From NCBI RefSeq assembly GCF_058153355.1, contig NZ_CM177019.1: a stretch of DNA of 64,000 nt; one strand, given 5' to 3'. Shown one piece after another: positions 10,438 through 46,080 of this stretch (within the stretch, counting starts at the first letter, position 1; every line of letters begins with the position of its first letter). A program made the translations under genes and the position numbers. The notes under the pieces are model-generated. The model was not told where the DNA came from and searched no databases. It was given only the letters and a program-made list of their open reading frames with translations.

Positions 10438-10476
10438 GAAAAAAAAGCCCGCACTGTCAGGTGCGGGCTTTTTTCT
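10438..10476 (-). terminator. thr operon attenuator (rho-independent terminator hairpin)
   Basis: GC-rich hairpin gcccgcacctgacagtgcgggc followed by U-run on the minus strand, between thrL and thrA. Confidence 0.8.
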
Positions 10477-10492
10477 GTGTTTCCTGTACGCG

Positions 10493-10561
<69 letters not shown>

Positions 10562-36382: not shown

Positions 36383-36510
36383 ATGCCGGATGTGGCCTAC
36401 GGTTCGGCACAGACCTGTAGGCATGATAAGACGCGTCAGCGTCGCATCAGGCATTGTGCGCCAACTGCCGGATGCGGCGTGAACGCCTTATCCGGCCTAC
36501 GAAGGGCAGA
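36383..36510. repeat. REP cluster (BIME) between yjjW and yjjV
   Basis: Three tandem or inverted REP palindromes including gccggatgcggcgtgaacgccttatccggcctac. Confidence 0.8.
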
Positions 36511-41357: not shown

Positions 41358-41543
41358 AATTGTTGTCTCTTTGATTATGTACAATCATATGTACAAAGAA
41401 AAATTCATGCCGCTGATTGTACATTTTGGAGGTATCAGAGCATAGCAGAACATGATCAGTAGGTGTATTTGTAGCCAAAGAACATTTGTATATGCAGCAA
41501 TCTTTGCTCTATTGACACTGTTTATTCATACAGTTAAAAATAA

Positions 41544-41563
41544 TACTGTATAAAAACGCAGTA
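41544..41563 (+). promoter_or_regulatory. Candidate LexA (SOS) box upstream of dinI-like gene
   Basis: tactgtataaaaacgcagta fits CTG-N10-CAG, 14 bp upstream of the gagagggg RBS and the ATG. Confidence 0.6.
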
Positions 41564-41577
41564 GAGAGGGGTTTTTT

Positions 41578-41826
41578 ATGCGTATTGAGATCTGCATAGC
41601 CAAAGAGAAAATGACTAAAATGCCAAACGGTGCTGTGGATGCGTTAAAGGAAGAATTAACTCGGCGCATCAGTAAGCGTTATGACGATGTAGAAGTGATC
41701 GTAAAAGCCACCAGCAATGATGGGCTTTCTGTTACACGCACCGCAGATAAGGATTCTGCAAAAACATTTGTTCAGGAGACTCTGAAAGATACCTGGGAGT
41801 CTGCTGACGAGTGGTTTGTTCACTAA
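41578..41826 (+). CDS. DinI-family protein (prophage-encoded)
   Basis: 82-aa [52 protein letters not shown]... Confidence 0.85.
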
Positions 41827-41856
41827 TTAACACGTAAAATCTGTAACGGCTGGAAA

Positions 41857-42063
41857 TCATTCAATACTCGCACTATCGAAAGTTCGCCAGCCAACCGCAG
41901 CACGTTCTTGCATACGACGTGTCTGCGGTTTTATATAATCCCAGCCGGTCCAGTTTCCAGACAACCAGCGTGTCACCTGCCGATAATGTCCTGTCAACGC
42001 ATTACGTTGTAGATCGATTTTCTGGTCATTTGTTGATACGCAAACATAGCCAATAAGCATGGT
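41857..42063 (-). pseudogene. Remnant of a Gin/Pin/Hin-family serine DNA invertase (internal deletion and frameshift)
   Basis: First 22 codons MLIGYVCVSTNDQKIDLQRNAL match invertase N-terminus; downstream DNA encodes DTLVVWKLDRLG only in another frame; too little space for an intact invertase of about 190 aa. Confidence 0.6.
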
Positions 42064-42086
42064 AGCTCCCTCTGACAAAAGCAGGA

Positions 42087-43085
42087 ATGATGCCATTTAC
42101 TCGTTATTTCTGCATTTTCATAAACATTGGTTTACAGGAAGCGGTAAATCAGGCTTCTGGCGCATTACAGAAAAACCAGAACGGTGCAGATATTCCAGGA
42201 AAAGATACCTTCACCAAAAATATTGGTGCCTGTCGCGCATATAGCGCATGGGTGGATATTGGTGGCGATAGTCAGGTCTGGACAACTGCGCAATTTATTT
42301 CGTGGCTGGAGAGTCAGGGAGCATTTAACCATCCTTACTGGATGTGCAAAGGCTCATGGGCTTATGCAAATAATAAGGTCATTACAGATACAGGTTGCGG
42401 AAATATTTGTCTTGCAGGTGCTGTGGTGGAAGTTATTGGCACCCGCGGCGCAATGACCATACGCGTTACCACGCCGGGCACGTCCAGCGGCGGCGGAATC
42501 ACTAACGCTCAATTCACTTATATTAATCATGGTGATGCTTACGCTCCTGGCTGGCGACGAGACTACAACACGAAAAACCAGCAGCCTGCATTTGCTTTAG
42601 GGCAAACAGGAAATACCGTCGGAAACGACAAAGCCGTTGGCTGGAACTGGAATAGCGGGGTCTATAACGCAAATATTGGTGGCGCAACAACATTAATCCT
42701 CCACTTCAATATGAATACGGGGAGTTGCCCTGCCGTACAGTTCCGTGTGAATTACAGGAACGGCGGTATTTTTTATCGTTCAGCGCGTGATGGTTATGGA
42801 TTTGAGGCTGGCTGGTCAGAGTTTTACACCACAACACGCAAGCCATCAGCGAGAGATGTTGGCGCATATACGCAGGCAGAATGTAACTCAAGGTTTATTA
42901 CAGGTATTCGCCTTGGTGGTCTGTCATCTGTTCAGACATGGAATGGTCCCGGCTGGTCTGACAGGTCAGGTTATGTTGTTACCGGTTCCGTTAACTCAAA
43001 CAGAGATGAACTAATTGATACAACTCAGGCAAGGCCAGTTCAGTATTGCATTAATGGGACGTGGTATAACGCGGGGAGTATTTAA
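42087..43085 (+). CDS. Alternative tail-fibre C-terminal segment (Sv'-like), expressed only after segment inversion
   Basis: 332-aa ORF opening inside a gix-like site (…IGLQEAVNQ…) and ending …YCINGTWYNAGSI, parallel to the C-terminus of the 44179..45492 tail fibre (…[12 protein letters not shown]). Confidence 0.7.
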   Translation: MMPFTRYFCIFINIGLQEAVNQASGALQKNQNGADIPGKDTFTKNIGACRAYSAWVDIGGDSQVWTTAQFISWLESQGAFNHPYWMCKGSWAYANNKVITDTGCGNICLAGAVVEVIGTRGAMTIRVTTPGTSSGGGITNAQFTYINHGDAYAPGWRRDYNTKNQQPAFALGQTGNTVGNDKAVGWNWNSGVYNANIGGATTLILHFNMNTGSCPAVQFRVNYRNGGIFYRSARDGYGFEAGWSEFYTTTRKPSARDVGAYTQAECNSRFITGIRLGGLSSVQTWNGPGWSDRSGYVVTGSVNSNRDELIDTTQARPVQYCINGTWYNAGSI

Positions 43086-43087
43086 CG

Positions 43088-43621
43088 ATGATGCACTTAA
43101 AAAACATTTCTGCTGGTAATCCTGAAACAAAAGAGCAATACCAGCTAACAAAGCAATTTAACATCAAATGGCTTTATACAGAGGATGGGAAAAACTGGTA
43201 TGAGGAACAAAAGAACTTTCAGCCTGATACGTTGAAAATGGTCTATGACCACAACGGCGTTATTATTTGTATTGAAAAGGATGTTTCAGCAATTAATCCG
43301 GAAGGCGCAAGCGTCGTTGAGGTTCCTGATATTACAGCAAATCGCCGGGCTGATATTTCAGGTAAATGGATGTTCAAAGATGGCGTAGTGATAAAGCGAA
43401 CTTATACCGGGGAAGAGCAGAGGCAACAAGCGGAAAATGAAAAGCAAAGCCTGCTACAGCTCGTCAGGGATAAAACCCAGCTGTGGGACTCACAGCTACG
43501 GCTGGGCATTATTTCCGACGAGAATAAACAAAAATTAACCGAGTGGATGCTCTATGCGCAGAAGGTCGAATCCACAGACACCTCCAGCCTGCCAGTAACG
43601 TTTCCCGAACAACCAGAATGA
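43088..43621 (+). CDS. Tail fibre assembly protein (U'-like)
   Basis: 177-aa ORF MMHLKNISAGNPETKEQYQLTK..., paralogous to 43650..44177. Confidence 0.8.
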   Translation: MMHLKNISAGNPETKEQYQLTKQFNIKWLYTEDGKNWYEEQKNFQPDTLKMVYDHNGVIICIEKDVSAINPEGASVVEVPDITANRRADISGKWMFKDGVVIKRTYTGEEQRQQAENEKQSLLQLVRDKTQLWDSQLRLGIISDENKQKLTEWMLYAQKVESTDTSSLPVTFPEQPE

Positions 43622-43649
43622 GAGAAGGCCCGATATCGGGCCTTAATTT

Positions 43650-44177
43650 TTACTCAGGTTTTTGTGGCCATTCGGGCTTTGCCGTATCCACACGGCTGAT
43701 CAGAACACTGTAGCGTTCCCATGCTTCCAGTCGTGTGCGTTCCTCGTCTGTTGCCATATTCAGCCTGACAGCGCGTTCCAGCGGCTGGATGACTGATTCA
43801 GCTTCGGAAAGTAACTCGGCCTTTTGTGATTCGGCCTGTTGCTGCTGTTCGTCTGCTGTATAAGTCCTCCTGACCACCGCTCCGTCCTTAAACATCCACT
43901 TCCCTGAATCATCGGCACGACGGTTAGCTGTTATATCGGGGATTTCAACGACGCTAAAACCTTCAGGATTAAGCGTGGAGGCATCTTTAGTGACGGCGAC
44001 AATAATATTATTTTCGTCGTAAACAATCTTTATTGTATCCGGCTGAAAGTTCTTCACTTCCTCATACCAGTTTTTTCCGTCCTCAGAGTAAAGCCAGATA
44101 ACTCCGTGTTTCTTTGTTAACTCATACTGTTCTGGTGTTTTAGCATTACCCGCTTTTATGTTCTTTAAGTGCATCAT
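43650..44177 (-). CDS. Tail fibre assembly protein (U-like)
   Basis: ORF 43650..44210; start taken at [22 protein letters not shown], one base after the tail-fibre stop. Confidence 0.8.
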
Positions 44178-44178
44178 A

Positions 44179-45492
44179 TTAAATACTCGCCACATTATAC
44201 CAGGTGCCATTTATATACTTTTGCACTGGCCTGTAATGAACGCCTGCAATATTATCGGCAGAGTTTTTTCCGGTATCCTGTACGTTAATCCCCGTCAGTA
44301 CATAGCCTGACGGGCACTGGAAATTCCATGTTTGCCAGTTATTCACACCATAATATTGCTGTGAGCCAAGCCGGACATCTTTCACATATCTGGAGTCAAA
44401 ATTGCCATAATTGCCGGGAATAACTTGCGCACCACAAAGCCAGTTACCGTTATTATCCATGTACGCCTGACCATCGGTGCCATTGGCTGTCCTTGAGTTA
44501 TTAATCATGTAGATGCCAAATTGCTTATTCCCCAGCCCACCAATTACGAATTTACGGTCGGTATGGTCCTGGCGAAGCAATGCCTGCGCACCATCGTTGG
44601 ATACCGCATTACGGCCCAGAATAACATTCTGGTCACGCATATGAATCCACATGCCGGTACTACTGTTAATTGCAAAACGGTTTGCAAATATATCCCCTGT
44701 AACATCAAGACCATGCCCCATGCTTATCCGGCCAGTTCTGAGATTAAGCGTAAAGGGGCGTAGTGGCCCTATATCACCATTTTCCCCCTCATTCTCTCGT
44801 GTAGGGATGATATGCAGGCATTCTTCAGAACGACGAAAAATGGCACCAAAAGATGAATTAAATATCCTCAGTGCATTGACTGTCGATATTTTCACTTCAC
44901 TGCTGAAAAGGGCTTTCACAAGAACATACAGAGCATCCCATTTAAGATTCATCAGGTCTTTAACCCGGCCGCCAGTGAGGTGGTGTCTCCATTTGAAATA
45001 TTCATTACCGTTATCCGCCGTTTCAAACCACATGTAGGAATCGGTGTCTGCATCCGAATCATTTTTAAATCCAATCTTCGCCCAGTCAGTATTCCGAATC
45101 CAGGCAAGGATTGAGTCGTTTTCAAAAGTAAGTCCACCGGACAAGGTATCGCCATTTTTTTGCACAGCGTTCCTGGCCCGGTTTACCGTTTCCTGTAAAC
45201 CAAGGTTTTCGAGAGCCGTTTTCACCGTGCCATCCAATTTGATATCGCCAAACGGATTCTTGCGGCTTAACAGCAGCGCGCGAAGTGCGGTAATCAACTG
45301 ATCGTGCTGCCCTTTCTCCAGGCTGGCACCGGATGCCTCCACCACGCTGCAGAGTTCTTCCTGCAACATATCAAAGTAGTCATCATCCAGATCGGTGGCA
45401 GGTGTGCCGGTCTGGGGGTTACCACGGGTAAAACCGTTCTTACCCGCGCCGAACTTATCCTTCTGCGCGGTTTTAGTGTCTATGCGATGCAT
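44179..45492 (-). CDS. Phage tail fibre protein (constant N-terminus plus currently expressed variable C-terminus)
   Basis: 437-aa ORF; codons 94-101 (LENLGLQE) are encoded by a gix-like site; C-terminus …[17 protein letters not shown]. Confidence 0.85.
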
Positions 45493-45495
45493 GGA

Positions 45496-46080
45496 TTACT
45501 CCGGATATTTAAAAATTACGTAGGTATGCGACGGGCAGAGTTTGTTAAGCACACACTCGACAACGGTGTCGCCCCATATACGCAGCGCGGAATCACAGGG
45601 ATCGCCACATGTCATCCAGGTGGTGTTGGTGGTGGCTGGCATGTTGACCTGCCAGTAATACCGCCATTCCAGCGCATTCACCGCGTCAGTACAGGCTGAT
45701 GAGCAGGTGAACGTGCTTTTGTCGTATCGCGTGATGGTGGCATCTGGTCTGCCCAGGGCAGCAAGCTGTGCAAGATAAAAATCCTCGTTGATGCCGCCCG
45801 CCAGGTTAACCTTCGCATCCAGCCGTTGCTGACGCTGGCGAAGGGTCTGCGTTCCCGCCGGAATACATTCATCCGGCAGACCGCACAGACGCTCCCAGCG
45901 GTTTATCAGTTCGGTGGTGGTGCGCGGATCCAGCTCCCGCATCAGGGCATCCGCACGCTGATGAACACGGGTTAATGACGGTGCCGCACCGGCAATCGCC
46001 GGATCGCTGGCTGACCACGCCGGACCGGGCGGCAACAGTGCCGATAACAGGCGGATGTAATCATCGTTTGTCACGTCCAT
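45496..46080 (-). CDS. Phage tail protein (Mu gp48-like)
   Basis: 194-aa ORF directly upstream of the tail fibre in a baseplate operon. Confidence 0.65.

Follow-up and report, generated by a model that had tools for sequence, protein, structure and literature searches.

A Mu G-type tail fibre cassette in an e14/SfV-like prophage adjoining prfC, most likely locked in one orientation

In a 64-kb stretch of E. coli/Shigella-type chromosome (hereafter, the window, by which we mean the whole stretch of DNA that was analysed), an e14/SfV-like prophage adjoining prfC carries what we judge, with a probability of roughly 0.7, to be a genuine Mu G-type tail fibre cassette that was swapped into this prophage and is most likely locked in place. 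In a complete system of this kind, a Gin/Pin-type serine invertase acts on two recombination sites together with Fis bound to an enhancer inside the 5' end of the invertase gene, and the segment between the sites flips. In the prophage described here, such a flip would join a constant fibre N-terminus (Sc) either to the variable C-terminus Sv, with its assembly protein U, or to the alternative C-terminus Sv', with U', and would thereby alter the receptor specificity of the virion. In the present state, Sc-Sv and U would be expressed, and Sv' and U' would constitute a silent, intact spare. From the state of the invertase gene and its enhancer, we infer a loss of inversion and the consequence that this loss has for host range.

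The 3,073-bp segment is bracketed by two imperfectly palindromic 26-bp sites in inverted orientation, at 42115-42140 and 45190-45215, neither of which is assigned to a strand. Site A, on the side of the constant region (45190..45215), reads TTCCTGTAAACC-AA-GGTTTTCGAGAG, and site B, on the side of the invertase (42115..42140), reads TTTTCATAAACA-TT-GGTTTACAGGAA, the reverse complement of which is TTCCTGTAAACC-AA-TGTTTATGAAAA. These sequences are exactly as written in the first-pass annotation of this DNA, which had described two 26-bp sites that share a perfect 12-bp half-site. The 12-mer TTCCTGTAAACC has only two perfect occurrences in 64 kb, both at the sites and in opposite orientation, and the number of matches with at most one mismatch that would be expected by chance in 64 kb is 0.2. 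Likewise, zero-mismatch matches to the core motif TAAACCWWNGTTT are found only at sites A and B. Written with the inner half first, the core is AA at both sites, so the two cores are compatible with inversion. It had also been proposed that each site doubles as coding sequence at the junction between constant and variable parts of the fibre, and GGT TTA CAG GAA (G L Q E) is indeed read in frame at both of them, in a 437-aa fibre ORF (44179-45492, minus strand) and in an ORF at 42087-43085 (plus strand). When the segment is inverted in silico, Sc (99 aa) and Sv' become joined in an unbroken 415-aa ORF. We examined the ORF at 42087 for a fibre N-terminus of its own and found none; only 14 codons precede GLQE, and these are derived from the invertase leader.

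Between the sites lie two convergent gene sets, each made up of a fibre C-terminus and an assembly protein. This arrangement had been suggested at first pass, and the PHROGs and PDB matches agree with it: Sv', U', U and Sv match tail fibre and tail fibre assembly proteins in PHROGs with E values of 1e-74 to 1e-115, and the cassette proteins match the solved structures of Mu S, S' and U (PDB 5yvq, 8ju3). On the plus strand, the putatively silent alternative fibre C-terminus Sv' (42129..43085; listed ORF start 42087) has an intact frame of 318 aa from GLQE and is 96.9% identical to the SfMu fibre and 96.2% identical to the variable part of Mu S'. It is followed on the same strand by U' (43088..43621), the 177-aa tail fibre assembly chaperone for Sv', which shows 100% identity with SfMu gp50 and 97.7% with Mu U'. 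Neither of these reading frames contains a stop codon or a frameshift. On the minus strand, U (43650..44177; 175 aa) is the tail fibre assembly chaperone paired with Sv at present; it shares 89% identity with Mu U and 95% with SfMu gp51, and it matches PDB 5yvq_B with an E value of 2.6e-101. Sv (44179..45201, minus strand), the variable C-terminus in the present orientation, comprises residues 98-437 of the fibre and is 94% identical to SfMu gp52 and 66% identical to Mu S, with a match to PDB 5yvq_A at an E value of 6e-144. Counted from the G of GLQE, Sv is 338 aa and Sv' is 318 aa, close to the C-terminal swap of ~335 aa that had been predicted. A GC-rich hairpin, AAGGCCCGATATCGGGCCTT (43625..43644, no strand assigned), separates the convergent gene sets and is bordered at one end by a T run (plus strand) and at the other by an A run; it was picked out by a consensus scan and may function as a bidirectional terminator. 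Outside the segment, the constant N-terminus Sc (45202..45492, minus strand) comprises 97 codons of the e14 StfP type, and its DNA shares 96-99% identity with e14/SfV-like prophages of E. coli, both those linked to prfC and others. A baseplate wedge gene (YmfQ / Mu gp48-like; 45496..46080, minus strand) lies immediately upstream of the fibre gene and marks the expressed, constant side of the switch.

Over all of its 3,073 bp, the segment can be aligned without a single gap to the equally long one of Shigella phage SfMu (95.9% identity), and the cassette of a P2-like E. coli prophage likewise aligns over the full length and gap-free (95.3% identity). Its identity with Mu is 85.9%, and that with the P1 C segment is 82%, with 82-90% over most of the length. 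Judged from its sequence, the segment is truly homologous to Mu G, and its initial placement in a Mu G-segment-like family is well founded, with 86-96% nucleotide identity over the full length. Megablast matches of the Mu-type segment end at 42122 and 45209-45212, that is, within the sites. Homologous cassettes occur in both orientations in the databases, in related loci and not in this mosaic. P2-like fibres of 678 and 700 aa have one common N-terminus followed by either Sv or Sv', as do Mu-like fibres of 510 and 488 aa, and the paired fibres part ways straight after the common LGLQETVN, nine nucleotides beyond the site.

The prophage in which the segment resides is not of the Mu type, a feature that had been overlooked in the first-pass annotation. 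From baseplate to head, its genes share 97-100% protein identity with the prfC-locus prophages of E. coli E1 and 23CRST011, both of which carry e14-type cassettes. The tail, baseplate and head genes beside the cassette are essentially all intact, with a stop codon noted in the sheath gene; the prophage has an HK97-type capsid module and a DinI-like gene at its end. Neither com nor mom is present at the prophage end, and the prophage does not show the set expected of a Mu-like (transposable) phage, namely a Mu-type constant fibre region, a gin-com-mom end and transposition genes. A Mu-like host prophage was rejected because the affinities of Sc and of the genes for baseplate, tail and head are with e14/SfV-like prophages at prfC.

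At both ends of the segment, the flanking DNA follows e14-type relatives as far as the core, and from there inwards the sequence follows the Mu type. We compared the half-sites with those of Mu gix and e14 pix, a kind of comparison that the initial description of the sites had recommended, and this revealed a point that the description had missed, namely that both sites are gix/pix chimeras. In site A, the inner half is of the Mu gix type, and from the core outwards the sequence matches the e14 pix site in stfP exactly. In site B, the inner half is likewise of the Mu gix type, and the outer half and core are of the e14 pix type with one change beside the core. On alignment, then, each site is a chimera of a Mu gix inner half and an e14 pix core and outer half, indicating that the cassette has been exchanged at the crossover points. 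We propose that a Mu G-type cassette replaced the native e14 P-type cassette, and that the exchange would have taken place exactly at the two crossover sites. The route of acquisition is something that we can only infer, because the mismatch between a GA core (Mu type) and an AA core (e14 type) makes a simple invertase-catalysed exchange inefficient. One speculative route, which we regard as decidedly improbable, is that the sites are the footprint of an invertase-mediated cassette exchange between co-resident prophages, a natural form of recombinase-mediated cassette exchange. By this route, a Mu/SfMu-type element would have donated its whole G segment to the e14-type prophage, perhaps with the donor Gin catalysing the exchange in trans and the recipient invertase already dead. 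If so, reciprocal chimeras elsewhere in the genome, with pix inner half-sites (TTCTCCCAAACC) and gix outer half-sites (GGTTTTGGATAA-type), would be direct evidence of it, and DNA invertases would move receptor-binding modules between unrelated phages besides flipping them.

No functional serine invertase gene lies beside the segment. Of the 555 nt of the neighbouring pin-type gene, 122 survive, in two blocks on the minus strand, as judged from alignments with Mu gin, P1 cin, e14 pinE and the undamaged pinE of E. coli D8. Block 1 (41994..42060) represents the first 22 codons (nt 1-67) of a pin-type serine invertase, MLIGYVCVSTNDQKIDLQRNAL, and carries an R8C substitution. Block 2 (41940..41993) corresponds to nt 147-201 (approximately codons 49-67, ...LSAGDTLVVWKLDRLG) and has been thrown out of frame by an internal deletion of 79 bp (nt 68-146 of D8 pinE). 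Relative to D8 pinE, the gene is also truncated after nt 201 of 555, and relative to E. coli 23CRST011, approximately 1.58 kb has been deleted, comprising cargo and the 3' end of the invertase gene. A tblastn search of the 64-kb window with Gin matched just the two remnant blocks and thus yielded no other invertase. We considered whether positions 41834-41931 might encode the invertase C-terminus and rejected this assignment; they are DinI-downstream prophage-end sequence, collinear with relatives. Likewise, the 64-aa recombinase remnants of the lambdoid prophages in EC31 and PEC1003 were rejected as the source of the remnant, being of the gin type and without the 79-bp deletion.

The internal deletion also reaches into the recombinational enhancer, the position of which we took from the P1 GenBank annotation (cin nt 19-90) and from statements in PMC3798978 and PMC3378877. 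In the Hin system, the stretch separating the two 15-bp Fis cores contains an ATTTA and a TAATG tract, and the invertasome includes both Fis dimers (PMC3798978); the Fis sites of the Gin system are located inside the gin coding region (PMC3378877). The first 67 nt of the remnant align to cin without indels. The part of the enhancer that is kept is nt 19-67 (42042-41994), within block 1, and nt 68-90, the distal third of the Cin-homologous enhancer, are missing, with the deletion beginning 6 nt past the TAATG tract. By positional homology, the locus probably no longer has, in cis, an enhancer whose two Fis sites are properly spaced. The proximal Fis site and the spacer are kept, by homology, and a chance Fis site in the new junction is conceivable.

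With an invertase gene cut down to 122 nt and an enhancer that has lost its distal Fis end, the switch is probably locked, and the cassette most likely remains in its present orientation, expressing Sc-Sv and U. The first-pass annotation had stated that inversion would swap the fibre C-terminus together with its chaperone, and had missed the loss of the enzyme. The anatomy of the cassette and the 415-aa fusion are in keeping with that statement, whereas the state of the invertase remnant and the loss of the distal third of the enhancer argue against such an inversion still occurring.

The cassette could instead be a switch that is still active, driven in trans by a Pin/Gin/Cin-type invertase of another prophage, in which case alternation between Sc-Sv/U and Sc-Sv'/U' would continue in the prophage, or in the host. 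Both sites are intact, their AA cores match and their half-sites come from working systems; the Sv' and U' frames are undamaged, and E. coli prophages commonly have a partial invertase gene beside a cassette. Pin, Gin, Hin and Fin are documented to complement one another, one example being the flipping of the e14 segment by PinQ of Qin; the e14 P segment is a substrate for PinQ, PinR and PinE alike, and PinE also flips Mu G (PMC12529663). However, wild-type invertases of the Hin/Gin/Cin/Pin family require a Fis-bound enhancer in cis, and reactions without Fis yield <0.001 inversions per molecule per minute (PMC3798978). The Cin-enhancer-homologous region here is without nt 68-90, and no second enhancer-bearing invertase gene is found within 64 kb. 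In addition, K-12 pinE deletion mutants have a locked P segment despite the presence of PinQ and PinR (PMC12529663), which in our own reading, and not that of the authors, would fit a need in cis for sequences inside pinE. We therefore consider an active, trans-driven switch unlikely and favour a locked cassette. The intact state of Sv' and U' fits a recent acquisition and also fits continued occasional use. The window covers 64 kb of the genome, and another prophage beyond it could provide the enzyme.

It has also been reported for StfE2 of e14, after PinQ-mediated inversion and in the same prophage family, that fibre fragments made from a prophage can shield the cell from other phages through receptor blocking (PMC12529663). 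Applied here, this would mean that the cassette has been domesticated and retained for the benefit of the host, with prophage fibre fragments blocking receptors against other phages rather than setting virion host range. In favour of this reading, the silent genes are intact, and AGGA lies 5 nt upstream of the second ATG in the orphan ORF at 42087. Nevertheless, the neighbouring tail, baseplate and head genes are essentially all intact as well, which makes ordinary virion function the simpler reading; moreover, no promoter-like site is evident upstream of 42087 in a consensus scan, and the mechanism reported for StfE2 needs inversion, which is compromised here. We consider domestication very unlikely.

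This combination of sequences was searched for elsewhere. In 5,426 complete E. coli genomes, queried with the flipped Sc/Sv' junction, the native region and the left junction, neither Sc nor the invertase leader was found joined to a Mu-type segment, whichever way round. Among 15 billion proteins, there was no exact match to the native fibre protein, to the flipped one or to either orphan ORF, and homology searches with both fusions gave no full-length match, the best coverage being 78-86% and always with other N-termini. Exact-pattern scans for the chimeric sites gave 0 matches in JGI metagenomes and 0 in GTDB representative genomes. The left chimeric site had 0 matches in IMG/VR, and the right 26-mer was found in two IMG/VR contigs, only within the coding sequence of another fibre gene, which has one such site and is not invertible. 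It is scarcely credible that the mosaic is an assembly artefact in which Mu-like and prfC prophages were misjoined at similar sites: although its junctions were not found in any other genome, viral contig or metagenome contig searched, the sequence common to gix and pix is only ~5-12 bp, far under assembler k-mers, both junctions fall at one site position with the frame kept and both cores AA, the segment has precisely the 3,073 bp of its SfMu counterpart with nothing duplicated or lost, and the 26-bp right-hand junction sequence also occurs inside a fibre gene in the two IMG/VR contigs.

Invertible fibre cassettes are a classic host-range hedge of temperate phages and are already well understood; the system is of a known kind, and the locus described here is a decayed mosaic member of it. 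It provides a base-resolved example of a whole receptor-binding cassette swapped between unrelated prophages at the invertase crossover points. It also exemplifies a second known process, the later decay of a switch, in which the enzyme and then part of the enhancer would have been lost and one specificity frozen. For annotation, the locus is a caution that good inverted sites and two gene sets do not amount to an active switch, and that the invertase and its internal enhancer should be checked.

Like the Mu G/Gin system, with its SfMu and D108 variants, the locus has the gene content and order Sv'-U' / U-Sv, inner half-sites of the sequence TTCCTGTAAACC and a GLQE junction. However, Mu Sc is ~170 aa, in contrast to the e14-type Sc of 99 aa; the Mu core is GA, whereas the core here is AA and the outer half-sites are of the pix type; and the locus has no functional gin, a truncated enhancer and a host phage that beyond the tail module is not Mu-like. 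The C segment/Cin system of P1 and P7 has a homologous S/U architecture and an enhancer within the 5' end of the invertase gene, but the 4.2-kb segment of P1 has long inverted repeats and different cix half-sites, cin points towards the segment and the P1 system is fully functional. The lambdoid prophages of E. coli EC31 (at prfC) and PEC1003 (at bioA-ybhB) likewise carry a G-type cassette with a short recombinase fragment (64 aa) and no enzyme. In these, the cassette is attached to a long side-tail-fibre N-terminus of the lambdoid kind, the remnants are of the gin type, the cores are GA and the sites are purely gix, without chimerism. The orf314/orf194 relic in the b region of phage lambda is presumably another orphan G-type cassette. 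With the P segment/PinE system of e14 in K-12 and the sister prophages at prfC (E1, 23CRST011 and D8), the locus shares Sc, the outer half-sites, the AA core and the invertase leader and 5' end, the remnant here being of the pin type, and with E1 and 23CRST011 it also has the prophage backbone and the chromosomal site in common. E. coli D8 represents the intact state, with a pinE of 555 bp, and the P-type cassette is oppositely oriented in D8 and in E1. In these sisters, the P-type segment is ~1.8 kb (StfP/TfaP/TfaE/StfE) and its inner half-sites encode GLGE, whereas the locus described here has a 3.07-kb Mu-type segment, half-sites that encode GLQE and an invertase gene more decayed than in any relative examined.

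The cassette is bounded by two 26-bp sites in inverted orientation, at 45190-45215 on the constant-region side (site A; inner half first, TTCCTGTAAACC-AA-GGTTTTCGAGAG) and at 42115-42140 on the invertase side (site B; reverse complement, inner half first, TTCCTGTAAACC-AA-TGTTTATGAAAA), with positions and sequences exactly as the first-pass annotation had them. The perfect 12-bp half-site that it described as common to the two was found in the 64 kb only at sites A and B, on opposite strands, and a looser core motif likewise has zero-mismatch matches only there; at up to one mismatch, 0.2 matches to the 12-mer are expected by chance in 64 kb. Both sites are in frame on GGT TTA CAG GAA, encoding G-L-Q-E as proposed. 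Site A lies in a 437-aa fibre gene (44179-45492, minus strand) and site B in an ORF (42087-43085, plus strand) with just 14 codons 5' of GLQE. When 42129-45201 is inverted in silico, both site sequences stay identical and an open 415-aa fusion results, in which the same 99-aa N-terminus carries the other C-terminus.

Between the sites, the claimed convergent gene sets are present as four genes in two pairs. The alternative fibre C-terminus Sv' (42129-43085) and its assembly chaperone U' (43088-43621) are on the plus strand, the chaperone U (43650-44177) and its C-terminus Sv (44179-45201) are on the minus strand, and a GC-rich hairpin (43625-43644) lies between the pairs. The start of the orphan Sv' ORF (window 42082-42092), which falls in the divergent invertase leader, reads ATGATG with AGGA 5' of it, which might serve the second ATG as a fortuitous ribosome-binding site. 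PHROGs matches place the two large products in tail fibre families and both small ones among tail fibre assembly proteins (E 1e-74 to 1e-115), and the top PDB matches, 5yvq and 8ju3, are structures solved for Mu S, S-S' and U. Using megablast against phage genomes, we observed matches to SfMu, P88, D108, Mu, P7 and P1 that run from site to site (window 42122 to 45209-45212), over a stretch annotated in those records as a G or C invertible segment. Aligned end to end over 3,073 bp from core to core, the cassette is 95.9% identical to the SfMu G segment and 95.3% identical to a P2-like E. coli prophage cassette, both of equal length and gap-free, 85.9% identical to the Mu G segment and 82% identical to the P1 C segment. 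Protein identities to SfMu and Mu, respectively, are 100% and 97.7% for U', 95% and 89% for U, 96.9% and 96.2% for Sv', and 94% and 66% for Sv. This end-to-end nucleotide homology to Mu-type segments makes the earlier assignment to the Mu G-type family correct, and the cassette is genuinely homologous to the Mu G segment.

The prophage around the cassette is not Mu, but e14/SfV-like. Its genes for baseplate, tail and head, which lie right of the cassette, match those of prophages at the same prfC position in E. coli E1 and 23CRST011 (98-99% DNA, 97-100% protein). The E1 and 23CRST011 prophages are of the e14/SfV-like kind and combine Mu-like baseplate genes with an HK97-type head module; their native invertible segment is a small e14 P-type cassette (gp53-like StfP, TfaP, TfaE, StfE). 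The tail sheath gene (53237-54730, minus strand) has a stop codon at window 53255-53257 where E1 has Gln, dropping the last 7 residues (QYSEESA; 491 aa vs 498 aa); the remaining tail, baseplate and head genes compared are full length at 97-100% identity. The E1 prophage and its sister in E. coli D8 have baseplate DNA ~98.5% identical and the same P-type cassette, in opposite orientations; a synthetic flipped junction made from E1 matches D8 at 99.8%. Given that D8 also retains an intact 555-bp pinE, this prophage family normally has a working Pin switch. In E1, only a 114-bp invertase fragment is left, with the enhancer region still covered. The chromosomal flank (yjjU, osmY, prfC) has a best identity of 98.9% to complete E. 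coli genomes, and a Thr operon leader (Rfam; 10438-10557) indicates that the window spans the thr operon back over the conventional genome start to prfC. Rfam also identifies the REP-type repeat RNA naRNA4 (36420-36497); because of this repeat, the flank query matches ~178,000 places in E. coli genomes.

The invertase leader to the left of site B, with its start codon at 42060 on the minus strand, is pin-type. Relative to intact D8 pinE, however, the remnant keeps only nt 1-67 and 147-201 of 555; its 79-bp internal deletion puts it out of frame, its conserved Arg8 is replaced by Cys, and everything 3' of nt 201 has been lost along with ~1.58 kb of cargo, leaving the remnant directly next to sequence downstream of a DinI-like gene at the prophage end. 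A tblastn search with Gin found no other invertase in the 64 kb. What the first-pass annotation overlooked is this invertase loss, which leaves the switch without its motor. The prophage end by prfC (window 41480-41940) comprises the DinI-like gene (41578-41826) and the next 105 bp, followed by the invertase at about codon 49. In relatives, 1.6-3.5 kb of cargo occupies the same spot: 23CRST011 has an SDH-family serine protease and an S24 peptidase remnant, and E1 has an AAA ATPase. This prophage end is a hot spot for deletion and replacement.

The enhancer is also truncated. In the GenBank record of P1, the Cin enhancer is annotated at cin nt 19-90. Over nt 1-67 no indels separate cin, gin, pinE and the remnant, so the window retains enhancer nt 19-67 and lacks nt 68-90. 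In the Hin system, two Fis dimers occupy 15-bp cores, one per enhancer end, with ATTTA and TAATG tracts between them (PMC3798978). The homologous ATCTA...TAATG is kept here, and the deletion starts six bases past TAATG, which by analogy should be the place of the distal Fis core. The Fis sites of Gin lie within the gin coding region (PMC3378877), and wild-type invertases of this family are nearly inactive without Fis and the enhancer, with a no-Fis rate of <0.001 inversions per molecule per minute (PMC3798978).

In a complete system, the invertase and Fis/enhancer would assemble on both sites and the segment would flip, joining the constant N-terminus Sc either to Sv, with U as its folding partner, or to Sv', with U' in that role; that complete form is a textbook host-range switch. 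Natural flipping is seen in the family: P2-like fibres (678 aa and 700 aa) have one N-terminus with an Sv or Sv' ending, as do Mu-like fibres (510 aa and 488 aa), and both pairs part just past a common LGLQETVN. The claim that inversion swaps the fibre C-terminus and chaperone stands as far as the open in-silico fusion goes, but the invertase and enhancer it needs are incomplete here. We therefore favor a cassette locked in the Sc-Sv/U orientation (probability roughly 0.7). Sv' and U' would then be a silent yet intact spare, most simply explained by recent acquisition and decay. The main alternative, flipping in trans by the invertase of another prophage, is well documented for e14 with PinQ, PinR and PinE (PMC12529663), but is unlikely here: it would need to run on a truncated enhancer, and e14 pinE deletion mutants are locked despite the presence of PinQ and PinR (PMC12529663). 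Those locked mutants fit a cis requirement inside pinE, a reading that is ours and not that of the authors of that study.

Boundary alignments at both ends follow e14-type relatives outside, up to the core, and the Mu type inside, from the core on. Mu, SfMu and P2-like cassettes combine the inner half TTCCTGTAAACC with a GA core and GGTTTTGGATAA-like outer halves, and e14 and the prfC relatives combine TTCTCCCAAACC with an AA core and outer halves GGTTTTCGAGAG and CGTTTATGAAAA. Sites A and B, which join TTCCTGTAAACC to an AA core and the outer halves GGTTTTCGAGAG and TGTTTATGAAAA, are thus exact gix/pix-type chimeras. The same change of type at both boundaries indicates that the crossover importing the Mu-type segment fell no more than a few bases from the core at each end, the outcome that would be expected from invertase-mediated exchange at the sites. 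The GA/AA core mismatch makes such exchange inefficient, however, and short-homology recombination in the conserved AAACC..GGTTT stretch may instead have brought the segment in.

This mosaic is rare. Neither Sc nor the invertase leader is joined to a Mu-type segment, in either orientation, in complete E. coli genomes; the native and flipped proteins have no exact match in a 15-billion-protein collection, homology searches found no full-length homologue, and neither JGI metagenomes nor GTDB representative genomes contain the chimeric sites. The exact 26-bp site A sequence does occur in two IMG/VR contigs (L007, 2529-2554; L008, 1950-1975), as the coding motif ALENLGLQE of a non-invertible 424-aa fibre gene whose N-terminus and C-terminal domain both differ from those of the window fibre; that gene has this one site and no other, comes with a single Tfa gene and has an IS66-type transposase in its vicinity. 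The motif by itself is therefore no evidence of a switch, and in non-invertible fibres the linker that encodes the site is a mosaic joint in its own right. Two minor readings, domestication of the cassette as a defence module and a mosaic produced by misassembly, are both very improbable, the latter slightly more so.

The cassette is homologous to those of Mu G, P1 C and e14 P and shares their working principle. All the cassette-level features of these systems are present, but as a complete inversion system it fails on two defining features, the invertase and the enhancer. The fitting label is an orphaned, chimeric cassette of G type within an e14/SfV-like prophage. It has some value as a base-resolved case in which a cassette was exchanged at the crossover sites and the switch then decayed. 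E. coli prophages commonly have orphan cassettes beside recombinase fragments: in each of the lambdoid prophages of EC31 (at prfC) and PEC1003 (at bioA-ybhB), a G-type cassette whose sites are pure gix with a GA core sits on a long side-tail-fibre N-terminus, next to a 64-aa gin-type recombinase fragment. With both the EC31 lambdoid prophage and the e14/SfV-like prophages at prfC, at least two unrelated types of cassette-bearing prophage use this locus. The finding is real, and it belongs to an already known kind of system.
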